In this document: positions 7,400 through 47,089 of the stretch, piece after piece
Layout of the letters: each line of letters begins with the position of its first letter
Numbering within the stretch: position 1 is the first letter of the stretch
The notes under the pieces: model-generated
What the model saw: the letters and a program-made list of their open reading frames with translations, nothing else
Database searches by the model: none
Told to the model about the DNA's origin: nothing
Source: Candidatus Shapirobacteria bacterium
Lineage (GTDB): Bacteria > Patescibacteriota > Microgenomatia > UM-FILTER-40-11
NCBI GenBank assembly: GCA_020059745.1
Contig: JAGVBK010000004.1
Span: 242,511 to 306,510, forward strand
DNA length: 64,000 nucleotides
Reading direction: 5' to 3'
Program-made: the position numbers and the translations under genes

Positions 7400-7813
7400 A
7401 TGCCAACGATATCACAACTTATCAGAAAAGGAAGAAAAAAGTTGCCAAAAAAAGTAAAGGCAACAGCTTTAAGACGCTCGTTTAACTCAAGAACAAGAAG
7501 AATGAACGAGTCAACAAATCCTCAAAAAAGGGGTGTAGTAACTTTGGTCAAAACAATGACTCCCAAAAAGCCGAACTCAGCTTTAAGAAAAGTAGCCAGG
7601 GTCAGGCTTTCCAACAAACAGGAAGTTACTGCCTATATTCAAGGAATTGGTCATGATATTTCCGAACATGGTATTGTCCTAATCAAAGGGGGTAGAGTCA
7701 GAGATTTGCCGGGAGTTAAATATCATGTTGTTAGAGGTAAATTTGACGCCGGTGGTGTTGTCGGCAGAAAAAGCAGTCGTTCAAAATACGGAACCAAAGG
7801 CGGAGGCGCATAA
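7400..7813 (+). CDS. rpsL: 30S ribosomal protein S12
   Basis: 137 aa; [12 protein letters not shown]-terminus and [10 protein letters not shown] motif. Confidence 0.95.
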
Positions 7814-8292
7814 TGGCTAGATCAGGAACAATTAAAAAAAGAGAAATTCAACCAGATCCGATTTATAATGACAAGCTTCTTGCTAAATTTATAAACAGGG
7901 TAATGCGTAGTGGTAAAAAAACCATAGCAGAAAAGCAGATTTACGACTCTCTTGAAATGATAAAAGAAAAAACAAACCAGGATCCTTTGCTTGTTTTTCG
8001 TCAAGCGGTTGATAATGTTAAACCTCAAATGGAAGTTCGCTCAAGAAGAGTTGGCGGTGCGGCCTACCAGGTTCCAATGTCGGTGAGGGGCGAAAGAAAA
8101 GAATCTTTAGCCATTCGCTGGATAATTTTGTCTGCTCAGAAAAAATCAAACTCTGAGTTTCATACTTTTGCTGAAAAACTGGCCGCAGAATTGATTGACG
8201 CCTATAATAATCAAGGCGGAGCAATCAAGAAAAAAGAAGACACTCACCGCATGGCAGAAGCCAACAAGGCTTTTGCCCACTTCAGGTGGTAA
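7813..8292 (+). CDS. rpsG: 30S ribosomal protein S7
   Basis: 159 aa with an S7 family signature; overlaps the rpsL stop (taATGg). Confidence 0.95.
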
Positions 8293-8354
8293 ACCCCAAA
8301 TCTTTGAACCTTTTAGCTGTTTAATAAAGCGAAGTTTTTATTTATTATTAGGAT

Positions 8355-8810
8355 TTGCAAATTTATATTTTCATGGAAAATTGGCAAATAATAGCATTGT
8401 CTTTGGGTCTGTTTTCGCTGATGGGTTTTGTTAAAGGTCTTTTAGAAGCTAAAAAGAACAATTCATTTTGTTCAGCCGGAGTATTTAATCTCATTGGCGC
8501 TTTTGTTTGGGCTGATGCAGTTGTCTTTGGACTATTTTTCTTTTTCTTTTCTTTGGTTTCAATAGTGCTTAACGATTTCATTCTTTTTTTACTGGGGATT
8601 TCCTTATTTTGGCTGGTGAGAAGCGTTGGTGAGACAGTTTACTGGTTAAATCAGCAGTTTTCCGATCTTAAGCATAATCCGCCGGAAAGGTTTTTAATTT
8701 ATAAATTTTTTAAAAACGACTCGGTATGGATTATCTACCAAATATTTTGGCAGTGCTTGACTGTCGTCTTTCTTTTATCCTCAATTTATCTCGTTAAGCT
8801 TTGGTTTTAA
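8355..8810 (+). CDS. Hypothetical integral membrane protein
   Basis: Multiple hydrophobic helices and no recognizable family; alternative start at 8373 (MENWQ). Confidence 0.45.
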   Translation: MQIYIFMENWQIIALSLGLFSLMGFVKGLLEAKKNNSFCSAGVFNLIGAFVWADAVVFGLFFFFFSLVSIVLNDFILFLLGISLFWLVRSVGETVYWLNQQFSDLKHNPPERFLIYKFFKNDSVWIIYQIFWQCLTVVFLLSSIYLVKLWF

Positions 8811-8818
8811 GAGAGAAT

Positions 8819-9754
8819 TTAAGCTTTAAAAATTGTTTTTCCTGACGGACAGTAAAAATGTTCCAAACCATCGAAAGTTCCGGGGATTGGTTCCAGCCCA
8901 TCTTTGGTTCTGGCAAACAAAGGCAGTTTAGTTAACCAGACAAAAGGAATACTGTCAATCTCTTTTACTGGTGAGCCTTCATTAAGAACAGTAGCAATTC
9001 CCGCTACCTCAAGGTTAAATTGTTTCAGAAGGGCAACCGCACTGTTTATTGTTCCCTCTGTCAGTCTGGCATCATCAACCAGAAGAACTTTTTGTTTTCT
9101 TCTTGCCATTTCTTCGGCGATTTTGGGGTCCAAGTAAAGTTTTTGCCTTGAGCCAGTGTGTGAAGTGCCTGAATTTACTTTAACTCCTGATTCTTCGCTA
9201 ATCCAAGGTTTAGGCGAGCCGACTTTCAGGTTTCCCTTTTTATCAAGGCCGGCTTTACCTTTTTGAATTGAAGTAAGATAAACAGGCTTTCCTTCTGCTG
9301 ATCTTAAACGGGCAATCTCTTGGGAAAGTTTTGAGCCAAGGCTGTCCGGAGCAACAACAGCATCAAATTCAATCTCTCTTTTTTCAACCTGGTTAAGAAT
9401 TTCCCTGCCCATTTGCTCAAGGTCATTTTGATACCTCTCGTTTGTCATAAGAAGGGCAATTCTTACTTGATTATCTAGCAAATCTGCCTGAAAGTTGGGG
9501 TTAACATCTTGCGGTGTTAAGGCCGTTGGTTCAAATCTTAGCTCTAAAATTAAAGGGTTATCTTCAGCACCAATATTGGCAAAATAAAAATCTCCGGTAA
9601 AAGCCAGCCTATTTTTGCCGGCTGGTTCTTTTATGAAAGTCATTTGTTCCGAAATTTCTCTGTCGAGAAAATGAGCAAGGATTCTTTCCCGCGGGATCGA
9701 AATCCTTTCTCTGCTAAAGCCTGTTTCGGAACTTGTTTTTGGTCTTTCTGACAT
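8819..9754 (-). CDS. Phosphoribosyltransferase-family protein with an N-terminal extra domain
   Basis: Type I PRTase PRPP-binding motif VLLVDDARLTEGT near the C-terminus; 311 aa. Confidence 0.6.
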   Translation of the reverse strand: MSERPKTSSETGFSRERISIPRERILAHFLDREISEQMTFIKEPAGKNRLAFTGDFYFANIGAEDNPLILELRFEPTALTPQDVNPNFQADLLDNQVRIALLMTNERYQNDLEQMGREILNQVEKREIEFDAVVAPDSLGSKLSQEIARLRSAEGKPVYLTSIQKGKAGLDKKGNLKVGSPKPWISEESGVKVNSGTSHTGSRQKLYLDPKIAEEMARRKQKVLLVDDARLTEGTINSAVALLKQFNLEVAGIATVLNEGSPVKEIDSIPFVWLTKLPLFARTKDGLEPIPGTFDGLEHFYCPSGKTIFKA

Positions 9755-9763
9755 ATGCCTCCT

Positions 9764-11266
9764 TTACCAAGGTAATGCTAAGCCTAAATTATTAAAAAAG
9801 CTTTTATCTTGCATAACTTCTCTGGTTGCCCCTTCCCTTACCAGTCGGCCGTGATTCATTACCACCACCTGGTTTGTAGTCCGGGCAATCATTGGCCAGT
9901 CATGGGAAATTATTATTATAGTTTTTCCTTGAGCCTGAAGAGCCTTTATTTGCTCTGTCAAAGCTAGCCTCTCCTGTTGGTTTAAGCCTTTTGTTGGCTC
10001 GTCAAAAATCAGTATCTTAGGATCAGTTGAGAGAGCACAGCCTAAGGCTAGTCTTTGTTGCTGGCCAGTAGAAAGGCTTTTGGGATGTTCATCATCAAGG
10101 TTTGCAAGGCCAATTTCTGCCGGAGAGACACAACAGGAAACACCAGCTGCTTTAGGCGTAAAGCCAAGTTCGTCTCTAACTGTGCTTGTAAAAAAAGTAT
10201 CACCAGGATTCTGGTAAAGATAAGCAATATCAAGAACCCTTTCATTTGCCGGTGTTAGAAAAGGCTCGCTGCTTTCTAGCCTTACTCTGCCTGATTTTGG
10301 CCGGTAAATGCCGGCAAGGATTTTTGCCAAAGTAGTTTTTCCAGAGCCATTGTGGCCAATTATTCCGGTAACAGAACCTTTATGAATTTCTACGGAAACA
10401 TTGTTAACAGCAAGCTTATCGTTATAAGCAAAGCAGACACTTTCTGCGGAAACAGCAACAGGGCTGTTCCCCGGTTCCCTGAATTCAACTCGAGGGATAA
10501 CTATGCCTGCTTCTTGAGCTAGAATTTGGTTATTGCGGATTTCTTGCGGGTTGCCGGAGAATATTTGTCTTCCTTCTTTTATAATTAAGGCTTTATTTGC
10601 TTGTTCAAGTAACCACTTGGGGCAAGAAGAGTCAGCCACAATTAAAGTTACACCCTTTTCTTGCAAGGCTTTCATAATTTTCTTTATCCTTTCCTGACCA
10701 TTCTGGTCAAGGTCAGAAGAAATGTCGTCAAAAATCATGAGCTTCGGATCTTTGGCAAGCATTGAGGCAACTACAACCGCTTGTCCCTCTCCGCCGGAAA
10801 GGCCATTAACCTCTCTGTCTTTAAGTTCAGAGATACCCATAAAAGAAAGAAGTGAGTTTACCCTTTGGTGCATTTCCTCGCTTTTAACCCCAATGTTTTC
10901 AAGAGGAAAGGCAATTGCTTGTTCAACCTCACTTGCCATTAGCTGGTTTCTAAAGTTCTGAAAAACTATCCCGTAATCACGGGTAAGAGCGCTAATTTCA
11001 GTGGAAGCGACATCGTTCCCAAAGAGCTCAATTTTGCCTTCGTGCCTGCCGCCTTTAAAAAAATGATGGTTGAATCCGGCAAGAGAAGAAAAAAGAGTAG
11101 TTTTGCCGCTACCACTATCACCAAAAATAACTACAAAGTCTCCTTGAGAAACTTCAAGGTTAATGTCTTCTAAAGCCCGTTTTGTAGAAAAAGGATGCTT
11201 ATAAGAATAGTGTTCAATCCTGCAAGCAGGAGTTAACAAAGACTGTTCAAATTCGTGATTAAGCAT
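9764..11266 (-). CDS. ECF transporter ATPase, duplicated/fused A1-A2 (tandem ABC domains)
   Basis: Two Walker A motifs (GDSGSGKTT and GHNGSGKTT) and two LSGG-type signatures (LSGGEGQ, LSTGQQQ); AT-rich native composition. Confidence 0.85.
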   Translation of the reverse strand: MLNHEFEQSLLTPACRIEHYSYKHPFSTKRALEDINLEVSQGDFVVIFGDSGSGKTTLFSSLAGFNHHFFKGGRHEGKIELFGNDVASTEISALTRDYGIVFQNFRNQLMASEVEQAIAFPLENIGVKSEEMHQRVNSLLSFMGISELKDREVNGLSGGEGQAVVVASMLAKDPKLMIFDDISSDLDQNGQERIKKIMKALQEKGVTLIVADSSCPKWLLEQANKALIIKEGRQIFSGNPQEIRNNQILAQEAGIVIPRVEFREPGNSPVAVSAESVCFAYNDKLAVNNVSVEIHKGSVTGIIGHNGSGKTTLAKILAGIYRPKSGRVRLESSEPFLTPANERVLDIAYLYQNPGDTFFTSTVRDELGFTPKAAGVSCCVSPAEIGLANLDDEHPKSLSTGQQQRLALGCALSTDPKILIFDEPTKGLNQQERLALTEQIKALQAQGKTIIIISHDWPMIARTTNQVVVMNHGRLVREGATREVMQDKSFFNNLGLALPW

Positions 11267-11296
11267 TATTTATTATTTGATTATTTTTTGGTGTCT

Positions 11297-11336
11297 CTAG
11301 GAGGCCGGGTGCAGATGAAGCCTAACGGCCTCCTAG
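11297..11336. repeat. GC-rich 11-bp perfect inverted repeat at the composition junction
   Basis: ctaggaggccg and cggcctcctag separated by 18 nt; contains the stop codon of the T-component gene; lies exactly where GC content jumps. Confidence 0.5.
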
Positions 11337-12001
11337 AGTTTAAGGGTGAAAGCCAAGATGGAAAGCACGAGCATAAAGCCAAGGACTAGCCAGTCCACAC
11401 GGGTGAAGTGAAGCTGGTTGTAGACTGTTCGCTTGGCAAAAGGATCATAACCTAACACTTCGTGAGACAGCCCCTGATAGCGGATTCTGTCCAGCATTGC
11501 CTCAAAAAGCGGGATAGCAAGACCAACTGCTTTTTTTGCCTTTTGGACAACGCTTCCTGTTGTGTCGATCCCGCGGGCTCTTTGGATTTCTTGAAGTCTT
11601 GATACTTCCAAGCCCACAGAAGGAACCGTGAGCAAGGACTGGCCCAAAAGGTAAGTAAAAAGCTCGGTTGCCGTTGACCATTTTTCGATCCGGATGTTTC
11701 TCATGGTCTCGACAAACCTGCTGTTTCCCATGGACATGACCAAGGCAGAGGAGCCAAGGAGAACAAACATTCTTAAGGCAAAGATGGCTGCCTTGCCAAA
11801 TCCTCCGGCAGGTAGCTCGACAACAGTGACAAAAACCAGAAAGGGTGCTACTACCCGAAAGAAGTTAAGCAACCCTCTTGGTTTTGACAACCAAAACACT
11901 AACACCGTTCCGGCAAGGAATGCCTGGCCTGTTAATGTTTTATATTTCAAGGCGAGTACCGAGAGAATCATCCACCATGCAAACCAAAGCCTGCGATCCA
12001 T
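11333..12001 (-). CDS. ecfT: ECF transporter transmembrane (T) component EcfT/CbiQ family
   Basis: 222 aa membrane protein with a C-terminal coupling-helix region containing the ARG motif (IQRARGID); markedly higher GC than neighbours. Confidence 0.75.
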   Translation of the reverse strand: MDRRLWFAWWMILSVLALKYKTLTGQAFLAGTVLVFWLSKPRGLLNFFRVVAPFLVFVTVVELPAGGFGKAAIFALRMFVLLGSSALVMSMGNSRFVETMRNIRIEKWSTATELFTYLLGQSLLTVPSVGLEVSRLQEIQRARGIDTTGSVVQKAKKAVGLAIPLFEAMLDRIRYQGLSHEVLGYDPFAKRTVYNQLHFTRVDWLVLGFMLVLSILAFTLKL

Positions 12002-12055
12002 GTCTCTCCTTTCAAGGAGAGGGCTCGGGTGAACCCTCTCCCTGCGGGATGGTTC

Positions 12056-12967
12056 TCAGAAGTTGGGGAGTTCTGATCGCCATTGGACAATGCGGAGCAG
12101 GGGTTCAGCCAGGAAAGCGGTGCAGAGTACCATTGGAATGGTGTCTGACATCACGCCGATGGCGAAGAACCCGGCCCACCAAGGAACTCCTCCTGCAGTA
12201 GTGACATTGAGCGAGGCGCCGACAAAAAAGGCCATGGTCACGCCAGCGACCAGGTTCACGAGCGCGCACTTGACGACCCATCGCCTTCTGTTCTCCTGAA
12301 TGTGGGAGAGAAGTTCCTGGCGGCTTTTTCCTCCACGGAGAATCACGGCAATGGCTGAGCCGGTGAGTGCACCGACAAGGATGCCGTCAACCACTGGGGT
12401 GTGGGGCAAAATCCAGTAGCCTGCCAGCAATGCCCAGGCTATCGAGCCCAGGTAGCCGGCAAGGAACCCGGTGGCTCTGCCAAAGACCAAGGCAACAAGG
12501 CCTGGTACAAAGGCAAAGGTTCGTAGGTGGACTGCCCCGGGGATGATCGGGACCGGCGAAAGAAACATCCAGCTGAACGCAGTAAGACCGGCCATTACAG
12601 CACCGATAAGCAAACCTTTTCTGACATCAGCAGGATCAGCGCTTTCTACCAATCCCCAGTTTCGTAGTTGACTCATCAGAGCGTACCAGTTCCCGAGTTT
12701 GGTGAGTCTGATGGCGACCAGTACCAACCCCATAGCGAACACTGCCCAAACCACGTAAGTGATGGGGTAGCTAGCCTGCTCCATCCAGGCAAGCCACGAG
12801 GGGACCTTCAGTTGGGCAACGCGCTGAAGAAAGGAAGAGATTGCCTCCCTTCCAAGCGTGGTGACGGAGATGACCAAAAGAAGGAGAACCAGAAGCCCTG
12901 CGAGGATCAGGGGAACCCGATCCTCTCTACCGACGTCTACTCTTCGAGCTGCTGTTCTCGTTGCCAC
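12056..12967 (-). CDS. Integral membrane protein, putative ECF substrate-binding (S) component
   Basis: Highly hydrophobic, about 58% GC; strong SD aaaggagg 8 nt upstream of the GTG at 12967 (the ORF track's longer version starts at 13009); family not recognized. Confidence 0.45.
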   Translation of the reverse strand: MATRTAARRVDVGREDRVPLILAGLLVLLLLVISVTTLGREAISSFLQRVAQLKVPSWLAWMEQASYPITYVVWAVFAMGLVLVAIRLTKLGNWYALMSQLRNWGLVESADPADVRKGLLIGAVMAGLTAFSWMFLSPVPIIPGAVHLRTFAFVPGLVALVFGRATGFLAGYLGSIAWALLAGYWILPHTPVVDGILVGALTGSAIAVILRGGKSRQELLSHIQENRRRWVVKCALVNLVAGVTMAFFVGASLNVTTAGGVPWWAGFFAIGVMSDTIPMVLCTAFLAEPLLRIVQWRSELPNF

Positions 12968-13009
12968 GGTCTGCCTCCTTTTTGAGACATAGAGAATTGC
13001 GGAATGCAC

Positions 13010-13100
13010 AGTCTGCTTTCAACGGAAAGCAGCAAGGAAGCGGCTTAAAAAGAAGGGCCTCTTTGCTGCCTTCCGCATTAATTGGCTTTCACTTTTCAAA
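13010..13100 (-). promoter_or_regulatory. Structured GC-rich 5' leader (unclassified riboswitch-like) upstream of the putative S component
   Basis: Sense strand shows a long-range closing helix (atgcggaaggca / tgcattccgcat, 11 of 12) enclosing two internal hairpins, ending right at the SD. Confidence 0.3.
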
Positions 13101-13333
13101 GAACTAACCGTTTAAGAAACGCTTTTGTTTTCAGAAACGGAGTTATTAAAGTCATTTTTTAATTGTTTGAAAAAGTTGGAAAAAAGAATAAAAAAAGCCC
13201 CGGCTAAAAACCGACACCGTGGGCAGTCTGAAGTTGCCATTTTATTAAACATTGTTTTTTCTCCGGCAAAAGAGAATCTTTTTGCTGATAACACTTTTTT
13301 AGCAAATTGCTACAAATAAGTCAATAGATTGAA

Positions 13334-13870
13334 TTATCGGCTGAAAACCGGAAGCATAGAAAGGTAAAGAAGCTTTCCTTGATACTGGTTTCCTTGTTTA
13401 AAAATTGAAGCAATAAGGGAGATATTTGCTCCAGTCTTTAAAAGAATTTTTTCAAGGTTGGTGATGGTTTTTCCGGAAGAAACCACATCATCAACCACAA
13501 TTACTTTTTTTCCTTTTAAAAGCTGGGCATCCGGTCCATCCAAAACCAGCATTTCCGGTTTTTTTCCGTTTGTAACTTTAAGGACTTCCGGTGAAAGCAT
13601 ATAGCCTTTTATGCTTTTTCGGCAAACAACATACCTTTTTTTGCCAAGTTTTTGCGACAAGGCAAACAAAAGGGGAACTACTTTTACTTCTGGCCCAACA
13701 ATGTAGTCAAAATCAATTCCTTTCAGTTTTTCAGCCAGCAGTGAGGCGGCTACTTCTGTAAGTTCGGCATCACCTAAAAGAGAAATGCTGGCAATTTTTA
13801 TTTTTGGAGTTAGGGAAACAATAGGCAATTTTCTTTTTAAGCCGAAAAAGTCAAGCTCGTAAAACTCCAT
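13334..13870 (-). CDS. Phosphoribosyltransferase (type I PRTase; APRT/XPRT/ComF-like)
   Basis: PRPP-binding motif VIVVDDVVSSGKT; 178 aa. Confidence 0.65.
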   Translation of the reverse strand: MEFYELDFFGLKRKLPIVSLTPKIKIASISLLGDAELTEVAASLLAEKLKGIDFDYIVGPEVKVVPLLFALSQKLGKKRYVVCRKSIKGYMLSPEVLKVTNGKKPEMLVLDGPDAQLLKGKKVIVVDDVVSSGKTITNLEKILLKTGANISLIASIFKQGNQYQGKLLYLSMLPVFSR

Positions 13871-13910
13871 ATTAAAAATAATTATATGTCAATTAGGAAA
13901 ATAAAAAATA

Positions 13911-13939
13911 TTGCTTTGGAAATGGATTTTTGTTAAAAT
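13911..13939 (+). promoter_or_regulatory. Sigma70-like promoter TTGCTT-17-TAAAAT for fusA
   Basis: ttgctt at 13911-13916, 17-nt spacer, tgttaaaat extended -10. Confidence 0.45.
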
Positions 13940-13982
13940 GTTTTTTGAAGATAGTCTTTTTTATTGACTTTCAAAGCGGTGC

Positions 13983-14013
13983 TCCGCTTAAAAAGAGGCG
14001 GAGTTCTTTTTTT
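13983..14013 (+). terminator. Leader hairpin plus U-run (attenuator) in the fusA 5' UTR
   Basis: ctccgc ... gcggag stem followed by ttcttttttt; the overlapping alternative stem aagcgg/ccgctt shares the ccgc segment. Confidence 0.45.
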
Positions 14014-14037
14014 GATATTTTTTATTAAAGGATAATT

Positions 14038-16134
14038 ATGGCAGCAATCCAAAAAACAACTGAAAGAACTATGCCTTTGGAAAAGGTAAGGAATATTGGT
14101 GTTATTGCCCATATCGACGCCGGTAAAACCACCACTACGGAAAGAATTCTTTTCTATACTGGAAAAACTTACAAGTTGGGAAATATTGACGAGGGAACGA
14201 CGGTCACCGACTGGATGGACCAGGAAAGAGAACGAGGAATTACCATTGTTTCTGCGGCAATTACCACTTTTTGGAAAGACCACCGTATTAACATTATTGA
14301 CACCCCGGGACATGTGGATTTCACGGCTGAGGTTGAGCGTTCCATGAGAGTTTTGGATGGCGGAGTTACTGTTTTTGACGCCGAAGAAGGAGTGCAGTCA
14401 CAGTCAGAAACAGTTTGGAGGCAAGCGGATAAATATCATGTTCCCCGGCTTATCTTCATAAATAAAATGGACAAGCTTGGTGCTAATTTCAAAGGCACCT
14501 TGGAAATGATAAAAGAAAGACTGGGAATTAACCCAGCCATTATTTCTTATCCTATTGGCGCGGAACAGGATTTTAAGGGAGTAGTTTTGTTACTCGAGAA
14601 AAAAGCCCTTTACTGGGAAAAGGACCCGCTTGGCATTCAGTTTGAGGAAGCTGAAGTTCCGGAAAATATGAAGGCTGAAATTGAGGAAGCCAGACATAAT
14701 CTGGTAGAACAAATCTGCGCTGAGGACGAAACCCTGCTTGAAAAATATCTAAGTGGCGAAGAGCCAACTATTTCTGAGCTTAAAACCGTTTTAAGGAAAG
14801 CCACTATCGACTACAGACTGGTGCCGATTTACGCCGGTTCTTCTTTAAGGAATAAAGGTGTTCAGCCGCTTCTCGACGGAATCATTGAATACCTGCCGTC
14901 GCCTTTGGAAGTTCCTCCGGTAAAAGGAACAGATCCCAAAACAGAAGCAGAGCTTGAAAGAAAGCCAAGTAATGACGAACCGTTATCTGCTCTGGCTTTT
15001 AAAATTCAGGTTGACCCTCATGTTGGAAAATTAACCTATATCAGGGTTTATTCAGGAGTTTTAAAGTCAGGCAGGCCGGTAATGAATTCTACAAAAAAAG
15101 ATGAAGAAAGAATCGGCCGGCTACTTCTTATGCATGCAGACAAAAGAGAAGAGATTACCGAGGCCTTTGCAGGAGAGATTGTGGCTGCCATCGGTTTAAC
15201 TAATACTTCTACCGGAGATACACTTTGTGATCAGACCAATCCGATTGTCCTTGAGTCGATCAAATTTCCAGAACCGGTTATTTCTTTGGCCATTGAACCA
15301 AAGACAAAGTCTGACCAGGAAAAACTGGGCAATGCCTTAAACCGGCTTTCGGAAGAAGACCCCACCTTTAAAATAAAAATGAACCATGAAACCGGGCAGA
15401 CCATTATTGCCGGCATGGGAGAACTCCACCTTGAAATTCTGGTGGAGAGAATGAGAAGGGAATTTGGCGTTGATGCTGAGACCGGTGCGCCTCAGGTGGC
15501 TTATAAAGAAACAATTGCTAGAATTGCTGAAGGTGAAGGAAAATATATTCACCAGTCAGGGGGGCGCGGTCAATACGGTCATTGCTGGCTTAGGGTTGAA
15601 CCTAAAAACAGAGGCGAGGGTTATGAATTTACTTCTGAGATTAAAGGTGGCGCTATTCCCAGTGAATTTGTTCCCGCGATTGAAAAGGGCGTTAAGGAAG
15701 CAATGGAAAACGGTGTTCTGGCCGGATTCCCTATGGTTGATATGAAGGTTGTTGTTTTTGACGGCTCTTTCCATGAGGTTGACTCTTCAGAGATTGCTTT
15801 TAAGATTGCCGGTACTCAGGCGCTTCAGGCAGCAACCAAAGAAGCAGGGATTTCCCTACTTGAACCAATTATGAAAGTAGAAGTTACTACCCCTGAAGAT
15901 TTCATGGGAACCATTATTGGTGATCTTTCTTCAAGAAGGGCCCAGATTTTGGGAACTGAGGTCAGGGGAGTAGCCAGGATTGTCACGGCTTTGGTTCCTT
16001 TAGCAGAAATTTCCGGTTATTCGACTACTTTAAGAAGTTTAAGCCAAGGAAGAGCAAGCTACTATATGGAGCCTTCTCATTATCAGGAAGTGCCCAAAAA
16101 TATTACAGAAGCAATTGTTGCAAAGAGAACCTAA
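14038..16134 (+). CDS. fusA: Elongation factor G
   Basis: 698 aa; GTPase G1 AHIDAGKTT and the EF-G domain order. Confidence 0.97.
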
Positions 16135-36099: not shown

Positions 36100-36139
36100 T
36101 TGGGTAACGACCTAAACTCGTAGCAATACGGGCATGGTT

Positions 36140-36280
36140 AAAACCAAAACCCACCATAGGGGAACGAGCGCTCCTCGTTCAGCGTACCTATGGTGGGTCA
36201 CAATCCGAAAGGGTTGTGTGTAGCCGAAAGGCTATGGCGCTGGCGGGGGGCGCTTATTGCGTTTACCCACCTCGCCGACC
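36140..36280 (+). ncRNA. Candidate structured RNA (GC-rich; nested inverted repeats plus two GNRA-tetraloop hairpins), unclassified
   Basis: cccaccatagg ... cctatggtggg 11-bp stem enclosing a gaacgag/ctcgttc hairpin; caatccGAAAgggttg and tagccGAAAggcta tetraloop hairpins; GC well above surroundings. Confidence 0.3.
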
Positions 36281-36665: not shown

Positions 36666-36965
36666 ATGGGTAGAAGTATGAGAGGTGATTACGTAGAGAT
36701 GTTTAAGTTTTACTTTATGGGTATGAGAACTGATACAAATCTATCAATGGATATAGTTGACCCTCTTACCCGTGAAGTTAAACATTTTTCATTGCCTCAA
36801 TATAAGAGAACTAGTTATAGAGATGTAGCAAGGCATTTTGGCTATAGCGTAAGGCAGATTGAAAAAATTGGGAAAAAATACAAGTGGTATTTACAGCGTA
36901 AGTATTTTCATCTAAAAGTTATGAACCGCTTACCGTGGGATAAGGAGTGGATTTACAAAAGTTAA
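36666..36965 (+). CDS. Small helix-turn-helix-like protein
   Basis: SYRDVARHFGYSVRQIEKIGKK resembles a sigma70 region-4/HTH segment. Confidence 0.35.
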   Translation: MGRSMRGDYVEMFKFYFMGMRTDTNLSMDIVDPLTREVKHFSLPQYKRTSYRDVARHFGYSVRQIEKIGKKYKWYLQRKYFHLKVMNRLPWDKEWIYKS

Positions 36966-38293
36966 GCAACTTGTGGTTGTTCTATTAACCAACCGTTTTG
37001 CTTTAAGAAAGCCTTTAATAATTCGTTACTTACATCTTCATAGCCTAAGCTCCAATAGATTTCTTTTATAAAGTTAATAATATAGCCTTGAAGTGCCAAG
37101 TCGTCATATAAAAGAGACGTCTCTATTTCAACTCGCCAAATGTATTTATTCTTTAGTGGCACTTCCTCGTCCTCATGCCAGAACAAACCACCTCTGTAGC
37201 CGTTAGGAACAATACGTTTTAATTGCGCCCCATTTATACCATCTAGTTCTAAATACCCATAAATAGCCCCTTGATAATTAAACAGCTTATAAAAGTTCTT
37301 TAATGCCTTTAGAAACATGATGTAGTACACAGCTATTGCTTCTATATAAATATGCTTTCTTGTAGCGTCTTGGCGCAGTACGTTTTCTGCTAAATACATT
37401 AAGCCTGCCGAAAAGACCTGCTGGCAACTCAAACCGCCATCATAATTATGCTGGAAACGATAGACGCCCTCTTGAATTGGTTTAAGATTTAGGTCTGGGA
37501 AATCTGTACTACCCTTACGATACCTAATTTGTTCAATCTTGGTCTTTATATCATTTGGGTTGCAAAGCGCTCTTTGTGGATAGTAAGGCTGTAAAAGAAT
37601 AGTTAGCATAGAAACCTCCGTGCCTAAAGGTTTCTGGTAATACTGTGAGTTATATTCTGGCGGTTGTTGGCCTTGTGCTTTAGCTTTCTCTATTTGTTTT
37701 TGGTAATTGGCTTTTTCAACTGCTATAAGTTTTAGACGTTTTCTTTCTTCTGCTTTAAGTCCAGCCTCATAATTTTCTTTAGCAATCCTTATATAGTTTT
37801 CTCTTGCTAACCTTGCCTTATCTTTTTTACCTACTAATAACTCTACAGCTTCTGGACTAGCAAGGCTAATTGGGTCTGTAATGTTTCCACTACGAACATA
37901 GATATTAGCCTCATTGTGGACATAATAGGGCGTTCTATCTCCCTCGTAAATCCTTACTAATATAAATACTTTTCCATTTACTTCATTGGTTACGTGCAAG
38001 TCGTAGAGCGGTCTTGGGTCTACTGAAGTAGCATATTGATGTATTTTATCCGCTAACTTGCTATCAAAAGTAATGCCGTCAAAAACTACTGGTTTACCAG
38101 ATTTGTCCTCTTCTACGCCTACTATGATTACGCCACCTCTGCTATTGGAGAATGAGGCAAAATGCTTGGCTAAACCCTTACTTGGAAGTTCTTTTTTGTA
38201 ATCTAACTGAAATCCCTCAATGTAACCCTGTTTACAGAACTCAACTACCTCTTCAAATGTAAAAGTATCTATAGGTTTGCTTAGTATTTGCAT
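36962..38293 (-). CDS. AlbA_2 (Schlafen-like putative DNA-binding) domain protein with a coiled-coil linker and an uncharacterized roughly 230-aa C-terminal domain
   Basis: N-terminal FEEVVEFCKQGYIEGFQLDYKKEL...FSNSRGGVIIVGVEED matches the AlbA_2 pattern (E..E.K ... N..GG.i.iGv.d); EKR-rich coiled coil at about aa 150-215. Confidence 0.6.
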   Translation of the reverse strand: MQILSKPIDTFTFEEVVEFCKQGYIEGFQLDYKKELPSKGLAKHFASFSNSRGGVIIVGVEEDKSGKPVVFDGITFDSKLADKIHQYATSVDPRPLYDLHVTNEVNGKVFILVRIYEGDRTPYYVHNEANIYVRSGNITDPISLASPEAVELLVGKKDKARLARENYIRIAKENYEAGLKAEERKRLKLIAVEKANYQKQIEKAKAQGQQPPEYNSQYYQKPLGTEVSMLTILLQPYYPQRALCNPNDIKTKIEQIRYRKGSTDFPDLNLKPIQEGVYRFQHNYDGGLSCQQVFSAGLMYLAENVLRQDATRKHIYIEAIAVYYIMFLKALKNFYKLFNYQGAIYGYLELDGINGAQLKRIVPNGYRGGLFWHEDEEVPLKNKYIWRVEIETSLLYDDLALQGYIINFIKEIYWSLGYEDVSNELLKAFLKQNGWLIEQPQVA

Positions 38294-38321
38294 AATTCAA
38301 TGTCATGAAATTGAGTTAGTT

Positions 38322-40577
38322 TTAGCTTCTAAAGCGTAGTTTAATATAATCCTGTGCTTGTGAGCCTTGCAGTTCAGAGGTAGAGTTACCAGCACGGACA
38401 TAGAAGCGCTGACTTTGACCGTCCTTAACGTAGATAGGTACTCTAGATGGCAAGCAATCTATAGCCAGCATACGCTTGCCCTCATGGTCTTCAAATCTTG
38501 GGTGGAGGTATACCGTCCAATGTGAGCCTATCCTGTCATTAAGCAGATTTACTAAATGTAAATGTAATTTATCATCGTTTTCAAAGCCGTCTACACTTAA
38601 ACCTAATGCTTCTTTATCGTCTGAAACACCGATTAGAAGCGTCCCACCTTTACTATTTAGAAAACCAGCAATAGTTTTTAGTACGCTTAGTTCTATTCTT
38701 GGGTCTGGTTGTCCAGTATGCAAATTGGTTCTTAGAGTGGACTTAAACTCAACTGCACCCGTCTCACCTTGCGCAATAATATCAGCGATTGATAAATGAG
38801 ATATTTCATCTTCTTGTTTTAGGTCTGATTTTAGCTTGTGGTATGCGTCTGCAATTATCTGTGAAATACGCTCTCTTCTTCTCATTAAAAACTCTCTGTA
38901 CTCCATTTCTTCCCAATTATCTGGGAGACCGTGCCAGTAATACATCTTTTTAATTTCTTGAGGTGAAAAGCGAGATACTATTTGTGGTACATACTCCTTA
39001 GGGTCTGTATCAGAAATTGCGGAGTTATCATTCCATTCCACAATTGCATAGTTAGCAATTTGGTTAGTGTCTCTAAGGTCTATTATGCCTTGGGTTTTTA
39101 GATATGCTTTGGGGTACAGATGATGTCTCTCCAGAGCCGAGCGAGTGGACTTAATGGAAGCGTCTATTAAATCTGCAACTTTTTGCTTTGAAAATAATGC
39201 GTCTGCCTCTAGTAACACCAACGAAGCATAAAAGGCAAAAAGAGACGGGCTACGTGGTGAGGATGTAGCAAGGCTATTTGGTAAATTGATAGACCAATAG
39301 TCATCCGTAAATACTTCCGCACAAATACGCTCTAACTCACCTATAAACTCGTCTGCCTCTATTACATTTCTAAACCGTGCTAAATCAAACTCCATAGCGC
39401 TCTCTGGAGAGCCTGTAAATCGTCCTGTTAAGCTGGACATAAAGAACCAACGGGCGATTACTTGCCTTAACTTAAACTCTTCTACCTTGTACTCTGTACG
39501 CCCGATAAGGTAGAGAGTATAGGCAAACATTAAATTAGTCTGAGAACTTATGTAGTCACTATTACGGTAGCCAGATAGTGCTATAGCTTTGAGGAAATCG
39601 TGCCAGTAGGTAAGGTTTAATACACGGGATTGGGCATTCTTTAGTATTTCAAATTGGTCAATTCTTCTTTGCTCACTAAACTCACCCGTCTCCAAGTCCT
39701 TACCTCTTAAGATTGAATAGACGTAGTGCAATCTTGCTCTCTTAAAGCCTAAGCCAACACTTACTCTTAGCAATTGGTCTGGGTCTGGTTGAGAAACTAA
39801 ATTATAAGGGGATGGCTGACCAGTTGAGGGAGTTTTTGCCATACGGCAAAAGTCCTCTAGCATAGTCCTACCCTCATCCCAGAATACGGACATTAAAGTA
39901 AGAATAAAATCTGACTGATTAAGTGGTTTACCCTCACTATTTATACGGACAAATATCTCTGCCACTTGCTCCTCTGTAATAGCAGACGATAATTCCAATG
40001 CCGTAAAAGGGAAATTAAGTAGGTTAGATAGTCGTGTAATTGACTGTCGTATTTTCTTTACATCTTCTGGCGTAAGGTTAGCAACCTCCTGATTATTCTG
40101 GATATACGTATCTACAAGTTCAAAAATATCTGTAGATTTATTCCAGAGCATGGAGATATTGGGGATATAAGACCTATCTTTTTTAATGGCGGCGTCCGAA
40201 ACTGCAAAGCGTTCCGTGATAGGATTAAATGATATTTCTATCTTTTCCTTTTGGTAATTTTCTCTCACCACCTCTACACCTTGGATAACGGCAAAGAGTG
40301 ATGTAAGTCTTTGTTGACCATCTACAATAAGTAATCTTGCAGGTTTTTGCTTGGTGTCTGCTCCAATTTGTCTTGCTTCCTCAACAAAAGCATTTTGCCA
40401 AAATAGTAAGTAGCCAATGGGGTAACCCCGATACATACTGTCAAAGAGGTCTCTAACTTTGGTATCTTTCCAGACAAAAGGTCGCTGTATGTCTGGCAAG
40501 CCTATTTCGCCCATCTCAATATAGTTGACGAGCGTACCCAAGTCGTAGCGTACTTCTTTGAATAATCTATCTGCCAT
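38322..40577 (-). CDS. GmrSD-family type IV restriction-like nuclease (DUF262 + DUF1524) fused to a C-terminal AlbA_2/Schlafen-like domain
   Basis: DUF262 motifs IQRPFVW and DGQQRLTSL; HNH-like DUF1524 segment ERHHLYPKAYL...NYAIVEWNDN; C-terminal GETGAVEFKSTL...IAGFLNSKGGTLLIGVSDD AlbA_2 signature. Confidence 0.7.
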   Translation of the reverse strand: MADRLFKEVRYDLGTLVNYIEMGEIGLPDIQRPFVWKDTKVRDLFDSMYRGYPIGYLLFWQNAFVEEARQIGADTKQKPARLLIVDGQQRLTSLFAVIQGVEVVRENYQKEKIEISFNPITERFAVSDAAIKKDRSYIPNISMLWNKSTDIFELVDTYIQNNQEVANLTPEDVKKIRQSITRLSNLLNFPFTALELSSAITEEQVAEIFVRINSEGKPLNQSDFILTLMSVFWDEGRTMLEDFCRMAKTPSTGQPSPYNLVSQPDPDQLLRVSVGLGFKRARLHYVYSILRGKDLETGEFSEQRRIDQFEILKNAQSRVLNLTYWHDFLKAIALSGYRNSDYISSQTNLMFAYTLYLIGRTEYKVEEFKLRQVIARWFFMSSLTGRFTGSPESAMEFDLARFRNVIEADEFIGELERICAEVFTDDYWSINLPNSLATSSPRSPSLFAFYASLVLLEADALFSKQKVADLIDASIKSTRSALERHHLYPKAYLKTQGIIDLRDTNQIANYAIVEWNDNSAISDTDPKEYVPQIVSRFSPQEIKKMYYWHGLPDNWEEMEYREFLMRRRERISQIIADAYHKLKSDLKQEDEISHLSIADIIAQGETGAVEFKSTLRTNLHTGQPDPRIELSVLKTIAGFLNSKGGTLLIGVSDDKEALGLSVDGFENDDKLHLHLVNLLNDRIGSHWTVYLHPRFEDHEGKRMLAIDCLPSRVPIYVKDGQSQRFYVRAGNSTSELQGSQAQDYIKLRFRS

Positions 40578-40671
40578 ATTTATCTTTATAACTATAGTCC
40601 AAAGTCTTTAACACTTGTATTTAATCGGTTGATTTTTTGTAACAAATGCTAAATAATGATAAATAGATTAT

Positions 40672-40839
40672 ATGGCAAAAGATGACCTTTTTTCAATAGA
40701 AGAAGTAGCTAAAACGCTTAAAGTCTCATACATAACCGTTTACAGGTGGATTAGGGCTAACAAACTGCCGTCTGTTAAGGCGGGTAAGCAATATAGAATA
40801 AAAAAAGTAGACCTAGACGCTTTTCTAAAAGTTAAATAA
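40672..40839 (+). CDS. Excisionase/AlpA-family helix-turn-helix protein (HTH_17-like)
   Basis: 55 aa; SIEEVAKTLKVSYITVYRWIRANKLPSVKAGKQYRIKKVDLDAF matches the excisionase-family HTH pattern; not in the ORF track (under 60 aa). Confidence 0.55.
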   Translation: MAKDDLFSIEEVAKTLKVSYITVYRWIRANKLPSVKAGKQYRIKKVDLDAFLKVK

Positions 40840-40847
40840 AGATAAAT

Positions 40848-42698
40848 ATGAGCGACCAAAACAACAAAATTAACAAAAAAGTTGAAATTGACTTGAGTGA
40901 GCTACTTAAAAAGGATGCTCCCTATCTTGTAGAAGATGGCAAGGTAAACATAGAAAAATTAAAAAGCTTACTAACTGGCAAAACTACCGAAAAAGAAGAC
41001 GATAGATTTTATTTTAACTGGGCTGGCAAGGATAAAGTTTTCCAAGCAATCCAAGCACCCGCATTCTCAACTCTAGCGCCTCAAAAGGACAAATCTATTG
41101 GTTGGGACGAGACCGAGAACTTAATGATAGTAGGTGAAAATCTAGAGACCTTAAAACTCCTCCTAAAACCCTACTTTGGCAAAGTTAAAATCATTTATAT
41201 TGACCCACCCTACAACACAGGTAAAGACTTTATCTACAAAGACGACTTTTCCGCACCTCTTAAAGACTACCTAGAGCGTACGGGACAAAAAGGAACCGCT
41301 GGAGAAAGACTAACGACTAATTCAGAAACTAACGGGCGCTACCATTCCGACTGGCTTAATTTCATGTACCCTCGTTTATTTATGGCTAGAAATCTACTAC
41401 GTGAAGATGGACTAATTTTTGTTTCAATTGACGAAAATGAACATCAACATTTAAGAATGCTTATGGATGAGGTTTTTGGCGAAGATAATTTTATTGCAGA
41501 ATTAGTCTGGCAAAAGAAAAAAGGCGGAAGTAATGACGCAAAATACATAGCTTTAGAACATGAGTATGTAATTTTTTATGCAAAAACCAAAACTACATTA
41601 GAAAAATTATTTATACCCCACACTGAAGAATATCTAGAGAGGTACAACCAAGAGGATAAAATAGGGCGTTTTTATTGGGATACATTCAAAAGAAAAAGTG
41701 GAAAGCAGTATTACGCAATAAAAGCACCAGATAATACCAAAATAGAGTTTGATGAAAACAATAACCGTATAAGTTGGTTAAGGTCAGAAAAAAGATTTTT
41801 AGACGACTTAGAAAAGGGTGAGGTTAAGTTTGAAAAAAATGGTGACGGATGGTCTGTGTTATTCAAACAACGGGAGCCAAAGGGTAAAAAACCGAGAAGT
41901 TTAATGACCGACGTAGGAACAACAAGTGCTGGAAGTGATGAGTTGCTGGATATTTTTAAGAAAAACATATTTGATAATCCCAAACCCTCTACACTAATCA
42001 AGCATATTCTAAGCATTTCACAGGATAAAGACGCTGTTGTGTTAGATTTTTTTGCAGGCTCTGGAACTACAGCAAAAGCTGTATATGAACTTAATAAGGA
42101 TGATGAGGGTTTTAGAAAATACATCTTAGTCCAAATCCAAGAGCCAGTAGACATCAGCAAAGAAACTGGCAAAAACGCAAAGGAATTAGGTTTTAATTCT
42201 GTAGATGAAATTTGTGTTGAAAGAATAAAACGAGAAAATGAAAAGCTAAAGGGAAGTAAAGGAGATATTGGGTTTAAGGTGTTTAAGCTATCTCACTCAA
42301 ACTTTAACCTAAAGGAAGAGTTTGAACTAACCGAGAATAAAGACTTGGGAGAGTTAAAAAGTAACTACCTAAAAGAGTTAGGACTTTATGTAGACCAGCC
42401 CACCGTAGCTACAGCAAATACTTTGGATATCGTCTACGAGATAATCTTAAAAAATGGCTTTTCTCTTAACTCCAAAATTGAAGAATTAAAACTAGGGTCT
42501 AATAGTTTCTATAAGGTAAACGACGCCGAAAACGAGCTGGAGATATACATATCTTTAGACGCAAAAATTGAGGATGGGTCTGTAGAGGCTATACGCACCA
42601 CAGAGTACAAAGGCAAGACGTTTGCATTTTATGACAACGCCCTCACCGATAGCCAAAAGATAAACCTCAATACTTTTGTGAAATTGCAGGTAATTTAA
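40848..42698 (+). CDS. mod: Type III restriction-modification Mod subunit (N6-adenine DNA methyltransferase, beta class)
   Basis: Motif IV IYIDPPYN precedes motif I DFFAGSGTT; adjacent to a helicase-nuclease gene. Confidence 0.85.
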   Translation: MSDQNNKINKKVEIDLSELLKKDAPYLVEDGKVNIEKLKSLLTGKTTEKEDDRFYFNWAGKDKVFQAIQAPAFSTLAPQKDKSIGWDETENLMIVGENLETLKLLLKPYFGKVKIIYIDPPYNTGKDFIYKDDFSAPLKDYLERTGQKGTAGERLTTNSETNGRYHSDWLNFMYPRLFMARNLLREDGLIFVSIDENEHQHLRMLMDEVFGEDNFIAELVWQKKKGGSNDAKYIALEHEYVIFYAKTKTTLEKLFIPHTEEYLERYNQEDKIGRFYWDTFKRKSGKQYYAIKAPDNTKIEFDENNNRISWLRSEKRFLDDLEKGEVKFEKNGDGWSVLFKQREPKGKKPRSLMTDVGTTSAGSDELLDIFKKNIFDNPKPSTLIKHILSISQDKDAVVLDFFAGSGTTAKAVYELNKDDEGFRKYILVQIQEPVDISKETGKNAKELGFNSVDEICVERIKRENEKLKGSKGDIGFKVFKLSHSNFNLKEEFELTENKDLGELKSNYLKELGLYVDQPTVATANTLDIVYEIILKNGFSLNSKIEELKLGSNSFYKVNDAENELEIYISLDAKIEDGSVEAIRTTEYKGKTFAFYDNALTDSQKINLNTFVKLQVI

Positions 42699-42701
42699 CC
42701 T

Positions 42702-45308: not shown

Positions 45309-45469
45309 TTAGTCAAAAAAGTGTAGACGAGTTAAAGAAGATATTTAAGGAGGAGTACAAATCCGACTTAACAGACGAGGAAGCCAAGGAAACGGGTCAA
45401 AAGTTGGTGGACTACTTTAGTCTTTTAATAGAGATTGATAAAAAGGCTAAAATTGTTAGGAAAAAATGA
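45305..45469 (+). CDS. Hypothetical 54-aa protein overlapping the res stop (ATGA)
   Basis: Open frame with start-stop overlap coupling; no recognizable family. Confidence 0.25.
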   Translation: MISQKSVDELKKIFKEEYKSDLTDEEAKETGQKLVDYFSLLIEIDKKAKIVRKK

Positions 45470-45478
45470 AATATAAAT

Positions 45479-47035: not shown

Positions 47036-47089
47036 ACCCACGACCTCACGCACCCCATGCGTGCGCGCTACCAACTGCGCCATTCCCCG
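47017..47089 (-). tRNA. tRNA-Pro (anticodon GGG)
   Basis: Minus-strand cloverleaf: acceptor CGGGGAA/TTCCCCG, D-arm GCGC-AGTTGGTA-GCGC, anticodon arm CACGC-ATGGGGT-GCGTG, T-arm GTGGG-TTCAAGT-CCCGC; the 3' end overlaps the recombinase stop. Confidence 0.85.

Follow-up and report, generated by a model that had tools for sequence, protein, structure and literature searches.

Does a sharp step in base composition within an operon record a recent horizontal gene transfer (HGT), or may it instead be a lasting property of the operon itself? The question is raised by a 64,000-nucleotide (nt) stretch of the genome of a Candidatus Shapirobacteria bacterium (contig JAGVBK010000004.1, positions 242,511 to 306,510; hereafter, the window), in which a minus-strand cassette for a putative energy-coupling factor (ECF) transporter is divided into two compositional halves. 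Its genes lie in the order phosphoribosyltransferase (PRTase) gene PRT1, leader, S component, T component, fused EcfA1A2 ATPase, and a second PRTase gene, PRT2; S, T and part of the leader are GC-rich, and the ATPase and both PRTase genes are GC-poor. An initial annotation of the window had attributed the GC-rich patch to the in situ acquisition of T and S from a high-GC donor, beside a native ATPase. The reading to which we incline, with slightly better than even confidence, is that GC-rich S-T beside GC-poor ATPase-PRTase is an inherited, long-lived property of a clade of such cassettes and not a recent in situ swap. Sharp steps in GC content and codon usage are routinely read as recent horizontal transfer, and the same step here survives the saturation of synonymous sites, in hosts of 35-60% GC. 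The less ordinary elements of the locus are a PRTase-linked S family with no profile model, a compositional mosaic that recurs inside related operons, and a candidate covarying long-range RNA helix.

Composition and recurrence of the mosaic

The window is 39.96% GC overall, and its 1-kb sliding windows have a mean GC of 0.399 (standard deviation, sd, 0.034). The maximum, 0.566 at 12001-13000, lies about 4.9 sd above that mean; all 14 of the most GC-rich 1-kb windows overlap the same patch, and the next independent peak reaches 0.464. In a 300-bp profile, GC rises on the downstream side from 0.38 (11050-11349) to 0.50 (11350-11649), attains 0.57-0.60 at 11950-12549, and falls on the upstream side from 0.48 (12850-13149) to 0.38 (13000-13299). 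The patch thereby extends from about 11295 to about 13105, at 48-60% GC, and its upstream edge precedes the probable start of S by roughly 140 nt, so that part of the leader is included. At the downstream edge, marked by an inverted repeat, GC at third codon positions (GC3) drops abruptly: the final codons of T have 0.64-0.67, and those that open the ATPase gene have 0.17-0.30. The step at this repeat and the return to background near 13100, both described in the initial annotation, are thus confirmed by windowed GC (0.38 to 0.60 to 0.38).

Across 64 open reading frames (ORFs) of the window, GC3 averages 0.359 (sd 0.054); S reaches 0.618 and T 0.532, and the values for the ATPase (0.348), PRT2 (0.325) and PRT1 (0.331) are host-like. 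When expected GC3 is derived from the amino acids that each gene encodes and from ATPase and PRTase codon usage (0.37 for S and 0.35 for T), the observed excess amounts to +10.1 sd in S and +6.1 sd in T. Relative synonymous codon usage (RSCU) correlates with that of host genes at r = 0.87 for the ATPase and PRTases, and at 0.26 for S and T. The ATPase is accordingly host-like, as had been proposed, and the codon usage of S and T is alien to the genome.

All codon classes are shifted in S and T, the main shift being from U to C at third positions. At fourfold degenerate sites, S and T together carry A 0.21, C 0.37, G 0.17 and T 0.24; the host carries A 0.25, C 0.22, G 0.13 and T 0.41, and three high-GC genomes carry C 0.35-0.41 and G 0.34-0.41. 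The RSCU of S and T correlates with these high-GC sets at 0.21-0.43, and the codon pattern of the two genes resembles neither the host nor any of the high-GC genomes sampled.

The cassette is kept in more than ten metagenomic contigs, whose hosts range from 36 to 60% GC, and the order S-T-ATPase is found in the window and in eight relatives (L001, L004, L005, L059, L061, L064, L067 and L069). The mosaic, with GC-rich S and T beside GC-poor ATPase and PRTase genes, is present in five of these other cassettes and, weakly, in L071. Given in the order S/T/ATPase, GC3 is 0.62/0.53/0.35 in the window, 0.70/0.58/0.31 in L061, 0.65/0.49/0.30 in L069, 0.63/0.44/0.24 in L064, 0.53/0.37/0.24 in L067 and 0.67/0.55/0.32 in L059; for L071, T and ATPase stand at 0.45 and 0.36, and S is not given. 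The excess over expectation for S/T is +13.3/+8.2 sd in L061, +10.7/+7.0 in L069, +11.2/+7.4 in L064, +10.2/+3.4 in L067 and +11.4/+6.7 in L059. Uniform composition, with negligible excess once amino acids are controlled, is found in L001 (0.63/0.66/0.55), L004 (0.72/0.63/0.63) and L005 (0.33/0.29/0.24), and in a distant homologous block on a Brucella plasmid. In all six mosaics for which both genes are known, the GC3 of S exceeds that of T.

How old, then, is the contrast? The relatives have diverged considerably from the window (ATPases are 51-58% identical and S proteins 43-68%), and third positions at identical residues agree between the window and each other cassette at chance level, i.e., they are saturated. 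Recurrence among cassettes with saturated synonymous sites means that the mosaic is not a private, recent event of the window. The most telling pair is L061 and L069, whose identities are congruent across four genes (86, 66, 76 and 73%) and whose synonymous divergence (dS, by the NG86 method) is 1.4-1.8 in all four, which means that they inherited the mosaic as one unit. Their S genes nevertheless retain GC3 of 0.70 and 0.65 in hosts near 0.30. Under neutral decay, by a rough estimate with a wide error, each of the two should have lost about half of its excess, and an ancestral S with a GC3 greater than 1 would be needed. With S, T and ATPase having travelled together across such divergence, the puzzle of how a native ATPase came to pair with foreign T and S components dissolves.

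A further example is seen in L059, a contig of the Chloroflexota (Anaerolineae; 60% GC) whose ArgG falls in a cluster of at least 90% identity with named metagenome-assembled genomes (MAGs). Here, the flanking genes have GC3 of 0.68-0.79, and the ATPase and PRT2 (L059 2126-4578), at 0.32-0.36, are the misfits in a GC-rich contig; the junction is present in two assemblies (L059 and L060). This suggests that the whole mosaic cassette moved into the L059 host from a low-GC lineage, and the misfit of ATPase and PRT2 indicates that the internal contrast travels with the cassette, whatever the host.

RNA elements around the S and T genes

The inverted repeat at the downstream edge was described initially as an 11-bp perfect repeat at 11297-11336, exactly where GC content jumps. 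The repeat exists (arms ctaggaggccg, 11297-11307, and cggcctcctag, 11326-11336), and it extends to 13 bp, forming on the minus strand a structured element at 11295..11338; the fold (-28.9 kcal/mol, z = -7 to -8) takes the stop codon of T into its stem. A reading of the repeat as a junction scar does not hold up, since a homologous element stands between T and the ATPase gene in eight of ten cassettes (z = -3.6 to -10.4), with arms of the type GAGGAGGCCGG/CCGGCCUCCUC or GAGGGGGCC/GGCCCCCUC; it belongs to the conserved RNA features of these cassettes. Wherever it is present, the region upstream of the ATPase gene is AU-rich and has no Shine-Dalgarno (SD) sequence. The element is lacking in L001 and L059, and L001 has AAGGAGGCCGG at the same position, where it serves as an SD sequence. 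A Rho-independent terminator was considered and rejected for this repeat, as the coding strand continues with AGACACCAAAAAA and no U-tract, and a terminator scan does not list it. A promoter in the T-ATPase spacer was likewise rejected, the best candidate matching only 9 of 12 consensus positions and the count for the region not exceeding that of shuffled sequences.

A second hairpin, of the GGGAGAGGGUUCAC/GAGCCCUCUCC type, lies between the S and T cistrons at 12013..12044 on the minus strand (-28.6 kcal/mol, z = -5.0), and an equivalent (GGAGAGG/CCUCUCC) is found in eight of nine cassettes. Upstream of S, the leader of the S-T-ATPase-PRT2 operon (12968..13199, minus strand) is GC-rich and structured from about 13105 downstream; its 146-nt fold has a free energy of -46.2 kcal/mol (z = -2.2). 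Rfam searches with the leader and spacers of the window and of ten related loci gave no match at gathering score and only chance-level hits (E up to 10). A conserved sequence of about 120 nt, CTGCTGTTCCTA...CCGGATGGATA...GAGRGCAG, is common to the leaders of L059 (approximately 200-388) and L061 (approximately 1010-1199); it is kept despite near-saturated synonymous sites and may be a cis-regulatory RNA, also with no match in Rfam.

The two edges of the patch are themselves complementary. A repeat search returned a pair of arms (I8) at 13082-13099 and 11339-11356, within which the leader arm, 5'-GUGAAAGCCAA-3' in the mRNA, occupies 13082..13092 and the T-end arm, 5'-UUGGCUUUCAC-3' over the codons L-A-F-T, occupies 11346..11356, 7 nt before the terminal hairpin (both minus strand). 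The predicted helix, with arms about 1.7 kb apart, is the longest leader/T-end complement in the window (11 nt, p = 0.007), and in L067, L061, L004 and L005 the longest such complement has the same location (10-14 nt, with per-locus p of 0.003-0.08). Counted on an ungapped common register, used because MAFFT re-alignment of the arms displaced the pairing, eight columns are paired in all five cassettes and ten in at least four of the five, and six of the eight fully paired columns show two to four pair types, i.e., covariation. For each leader, the best partner is its own T end, an assignment that ranks at the top of 120 permutations. In L005, the motif lies in another reading frame, which argues for constraint at the nucleotide level. 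All told, the helix covaries in five of seven cassettes and is absent from L001 and L059, the two that also lack the T-ATPase element. Within the coding regions, searches for conserved third-position sites and for local RNA structure gave no signal, observed values being equal to those expected.

Known RNA structures offer partial parallels. Repetitive extragenic palindromic (REP) hairpins in malEFG act as intercistronic stabilisers, and long stems flank the 16S and 23S rRNAs for processing. Like these, the cassette has a strong hairpin directly after its upstream cistrons, together with a predicted helix of flanks lying about 1.7 kb apart. Unlike them, its predicted helix would bracket two coding cistrons, with one arm inside T, and no Rfam family matches.

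Origin and maintenance of the contrast

Granted that the contrast has been inherited, the two halves of the cassette may originally have differed in origin, and the matter is then what has kept them apart. A force specific to the S-T unit is the most likely cause, a proposition that we hold less firmly than inheritance itself. It is favoured by the persistence of the contrast through saturation, by its return in the same genes with S always ahead of T, by a peculiar preference for C over U, and by the coincidence of the patch with an RNA domain that is bracketed on both sides. Selection or some biased process may favour C-ending, GC-rich codons within an S-T mRNA domain; the domain would be closed by the leader-to-T-end helix and capped by strong 3' structure, and could give the membrane subunits an expression or stability distinct from that of the cytoplasmic subunits. 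In its complete form, with S and T actively held GC-rich and C-ending in AT-rich genomes of the candidate phyla radiation (CPR) type as part of a discrete, helix-closed and 3'-capped mRNA domain, this proposal is a tentative one. If true, it would constitute an undescribed way of giving membrane subunits different expression or stability from the cytoplasmic subunits of the same operon, and intra-operon composition would be kept by selection rather than being simply a record of ancestry.

Several observations weigh against long inheritance under such a force. The amelioration estimate for L061 and L069 draws on 81 fourfold sites and leaves room for an ancestor of extreme GC content. L005 combines a low-GC host and a wholly low-GC S-T with retention of both the helix and the hairpins, so GC richness is dispensable for the RNA architecture and for low-GC hosts generally. 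On its downstream side, the GC-rich block ends at different points (after S in L067, in mid-T in L064 and after T elsewhere), as would be expected from independent recombination events. For most relatives, host GC was taken from a few flanking genes on short metagenomic contigs. Folding of the mRNA against synonymous shuffles fails to set S and T apart (z of about -3, with -2.7 for the ATPase gene of the window), and the test is uninformative since the ATPase gene is also more structured than its own shuffles. Finally, the helix register was chosen from complementarity itself, and both arms are available in five loci only.

The alternative that survives best, although we consider it rather unlikely, is recurrent replacement or gene conversion, in which S or S-T in low-GC lineages has been overwritten repeatedly by homologs from GC-rich relatives, such as cassettes of the Chloroflexota type, the window being one event that has not yet ameliorated; in a variant, GC-biased gene conversion might act at a recombination-prone segment. 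The histories of S-T and ATPase do disagree in places: the S of L064 is 73% identical to that of L001 and 48% identical to those of L059, L061 and L069, its ATPase is closest to the latter three (65-66%), and the PRT2 of L059 is also discordant in trees. These cases indicate that shuffling of S-T modules occurs in the family, as observed outside the window. The variable block boundary and the sharp borders on both sides of the window patch point the same way, as does L005, which shows that a low-GC S-T is viable in a low-GC host. Moreover, the window S matches that of L001 at all three codon positions, and its amino acids are of the high-GC type (GC1/GC2 of 0.61/0.47, as in the L001 S, and a GARP/FYMINK ratio of 1.72, as against 0.99 in L005).

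Replacement of this kind would, however, have had to happen independently and recently at least four times, each time in one direction, and no donor is visible. Among 5.8 billion proteins, the best S match is 68% identical (partial; 63-65% at full length) and the best T match 43%; scans of genomes and metagenomes for a donor yielded one more close S (L014, of the L067 lineage) and otherwise distant, short homologs. L061 and L069 co-inherited their mosaic across a dS of about 1.7, third-position G in S-T stays near the host value, unlike in the sampled high-GC genomes, and S exceeds T in every mosaic with both known. Neighbour-joining (NJ) trees of the individual genes, built from few taxa and with unsupported deep nodes, resolve only a clade of L059, L061 and L069 (95-100% support in S, T and ATPase), on a branch that is very long in S and T and short in the ATPase. 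The window is unplaced in the trees for S, T, ATPase and PRT2 (bootstrap below 30), so that its phylogeny provides no supported discordance. The discordant best hits that the initial annotation had envisaged were also not found, the nearest relatives of S, T and ATPase all being members of the same cassette family.

Improbable, by comparison, is a single recent replacement of native T and S by a segment from a high-GC donor (e.g., Actinobacteria or Chloroflexi) with the native ATPase retained, which is what the initial annotation had proposed. One half of that proposal stands, in that S and T are compositionally alien, the anomaly is strong and sharply bounded, it is restricted to S, T and part of the leader, and the ATPase and PRTases follow host codon usage. 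The other half, recent acquisition in situ, does not: five to six diverged cassettes, one of them in a high-GC host, have the mosaic too, best hits are concordant, the base pattern is not donor-like, and the boundary repeat belongs to the cassette. Furthermore, as the whole cassette is inserted in the str operon, the word "native" is doubtful for the ATPase too.

Segments acquired by horizontal transfer have been described as atypical in composition and subject to amelioration (Lawrence and Ochman 1997, as cited in PMC12455944). The S-T patch shares with them a sharply bounded anomaly in GC3 and codon usage within host-like surroundings, and membership of a family that is mobile between phyla, being found in a Microgenomates genome and on a Chloroflexota contig, with distant homologs in a plasmid block flanked by IS6 elements. 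It differs in that the same genes are affected each time across saturated divergence, that the shift is dominated by U to C, and that neither the patch nor the cassette has an integrase, tRNA, direct repeats or transposon-like repeats at its borders (7800-14300), where the one repeat seen (I8) behaves as a covarying RNA helix. Phage or viral carriage of the cassette was also sought and none was found.

Least credible of all, and here set aside, is an artefact or trivial cause (an assembly chimera, the amino acids of membrane proteins, or high-expression codons), for although membrane proteins raise GC slightly (expected GC3 of 0.37 for S against 0.34 for the ATPase and PRTases), two other assemblies match the window, the +10 sd excess of S persists after amino-acid control, GC3 is ordinary in SecY and other genes for membrane proteins in the window, and S and T show the worst codon fit. 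Specifically, NCBI assembly GCA_003599075.1 (Candidatus Microgenomates bacterium) has one mismatch in 15,014 bp and the Logan assembly of SRR22315508 one in 2,233 bp, both outside the patch, and the two agree with the window across whichever borders of the patch they cover; a sequence shared by two further assemblies is not a chimera. Genes expected to be highly expressed (tuf, fusA, rpoBC and those for ribosomal proteins) favour T-ending codons, and whether the codon table is that of high or of low expression, the poorest fits are those of S and T, at -1.49 and -1.34 relative to about -1.0 to -1.1. A trait of the wider S family was rejected as well, for roughly 40 distant short homologs and the Brucella homolog show no systematic excess. 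No long antisense gene overlies the patch, where only short shadow ORFs of at most 112 amino acids (aa) were found.

Between recurrent replacement and the long-lived contrast that we prefer, the wider consequence is similar. Either one small module has been replaced repeatedly in one direction, or intra-operon composition has been held off genome equilibrium for a very long time, and either outcome bears on compositional detectors of HGT, especially for CPR genomes.

The cassette, its genes and its surroundings

What does the cassette encode? The putative S component is specified by an ORF that reaches to 13009 (317 aa, 13009..12056), with a likely GTG start at 12967 after AAGGAGG, giving the 303-aa protein of the NCBI annotation (12056..12967, minus strand; GC 0.56, GC3 0.62). 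A core of about 185 aa of the S type follows an N-terminal extension of about 120 aa. Searches of Pfam and NCBIfam with the protein gave no match. Its AlphaFold model is of modest confidence (predicted local distance difference test, pLDDT, 61.8), and the top 15 matches of the model in a Foldseek search of the Protein Data Bank (PDB) are all ECF S components (RibU, ThiT, FolT and PanT), with probabilities up to 1.0 and template modelling (TM) scores up to 0.6 on the target, but with weak E values of at least 0.03. A distant short homolog from Paenibacillus, encoded next to CbiQ and a fused ATPase, has a weak match to PF07155 (ECF-ribofla_trS; E = 0.0044). Given these predictions, the membrane protein plausibly fills the S role in a dedicated ECF transporter, in keeping with the putative assignment first made. 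The family is rare, with six word-index matches among 5.8 billion proteins and 28 representative clusters among 1.84 billion. Being unmodelled and tied to PRTase and purine genes, it is relevant to the nucleotide supply of reduced CPR cells.

The T component (11333..12001, minus strand; 222 aa, with AGGAG before the ATG; GC 0.48, GC3 0.53) is EcfT/CbiQ-like. It matches Pfam CbiQ at E = 3.5e-5 and 24.0 bits, 1 bit below the cutoff of 25, and the orthologs in L001, L059 and L061 are full CbiQ matches; an NCBIfam search with the T protein gave no match. Its translation shows one Ala-Arg-Gly motif, QRARGID (RARG). In GenBank, the gene is called at only 132 aa (from Met91; L007 10001-10399) under the name EcfT, accompanied by a spurious antisense ORF of 100 aa. 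At its full length of 222 aa, the T ORF has the AGGAG site and aligns with its homologs from residue 2; the shorter call, judged from these features, is a start-site artefact and a clear annotation error, the gene caller having probably been misled by the atypical composition of T.

The fused EcfA1-A2 ATPase (9764..11266, minus strand; 500 aa, GC3 0.35) follows an AU-rich spacer with no SD sequence. It contains two ABC_tran domains, matches TIGR04520 (ECF_ATPase_1) at 334.4 bits (cutoff 315), and scores 304.5 bits in its second half against TIGR04521 (cutoff 330). Downstream lies PRT2 (8819..9754, minus strand; 311 aa, GC3 0.32), a host-like gene whose product has a C-terminal PRTase domain (Pfam Pribosyltran, 33 bits; cutoff 26.3). 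PRT2 also follows the ATPase gene in L001, L004, L005, L059, L061, L064, L067, L069 and L071. At the other end, PRT1 (13334..13870, minus strand) encodes a 178-aa phosphoribosyltransferase and is host-like (GC3 0.33); it forms its own transcription unit, the terminator scan placing a terminator-like hairpin and T-run after it at 13200..13214 (minus strand), with equivalents 3' of PRT1 in L004, L005 and L067. Its product scores 173 bits against NCBIfam NF005592 (PRK07322, an "adenine phosphoribosyltransferase" subfamily; cutoff 143). A PRTase gene at this position is also found in L001, L004, L005 and L067, and every cassette that has PRT1 has a gap of 245-470 nt at the position of the leader.

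Genes for PurH-like proteins, PurP or PurB adjoin the cassette in five relatives (L001, L061, L064, L067 and L071). As a whole, the cassette would encode a dedicated ECF-type importer with a rare S component and two PRTases, a candidate import-and-salvage operon. It may import a purine base or precursor and trap the product as a nucleotide using phosphoribosyl pyrophosphate (PRPP), a purine substrate being suggested by the two PRTases, the PRK07322 match and the PurH, PurP and PurB neighbours. A third protein with a weak PRTase domain (approximately 240-280 aa) is encoded after PRT2, or after a short PurH of about 210 aa with IMP cyclohydrolase only, in L061 (5417-6859), L064 (3813-5166), L069 (3851-4639) and L067 (11776-12612). 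L001 carries a short PurH and two PurP genes, i.e., an archaeal-type route from AICAR to IMP.

Dedicated (group I) ECF transporters, reportedly described by Rodionov et al. in 2009, are said to include CbiMNQO, BioMNY and QrtTUVW. The cassette resembles these in combining a putative S, an EcfT/CbiQ-like T and ECF ATPase domains in one operon, in the match of its ATPase to ECF-specific models, and in the predicted S-component-like fold of the S core. It departs from them in the rarity of its S, with no Pfam or NCBIfam model and an N-terminal extension of about 120 aa, in the fusion of A1 and A2, in its two PRTases and frequent PurH, PurP or PurB neighbours, and in its split composition and the RNA structures around S-T.

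As its unrelated hosts indicate, the cassette is horizontally mobile. The plasmid block referred to above is on p1 of Brucella anthropi (NZ_CP103347.1 239451-242872, L072), where S, fused ATPase, T and PRTase genes stand between IS6 transposases. The S cores are homologous (35-37% identity over residues 119-295), and the linked genes for a fused ECF ATPase, a T component and a PRTase of the PRK07322/PRK06031 type are likewise shared; unlike in the cassette, the Brucella S is short (190 aa), the order is S-ATPase-T-PRTase, and the IS6-flanked block is uniform in composition. The Brucella S is annotated as an "aminotriazole resistance protein", and similar matches occur on Rhizobium plasmids. 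This name was discarded as a guide to function, for no curated model lies behind it and the literature on the term concerns yeast.

In the window, the cassette occupies the rpsG-fusA interval of the str operon; rpoBC-rpsL lie on the upstream side and tuf-S10 on the downstream side. The inserted block that splits the operon (8293-14037) also holds a 151-aa membrane ORF on the plus strand (8355-8810). A terminator-like hairpin and T-run on the plus strand (13981-14004) precedes fusA by 34 nt and is itself preceded by no gene on that strand.

Elsewhere in the window, a LOOT RNA (Rfam RF03000) was identified at 36109-36236 on the plus strand (73.9 bits; gathering score 46.4), in an intergenic position adjoining a defence island. 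The island (36962-47089) encodes two Schlafen/AlbA_2 proteins, one of them fused to GmrSD_N, a Type III-like DNA methylase and a Res helicase-endonuclease. The last of its genes, for a large serine recombinase (45479-47035), is overlapped at the 3' end by a minus-strand tRNA gene (47017-47089) adjoining recA. An integrated element is the probable identity of the island, whose composition is host-like.

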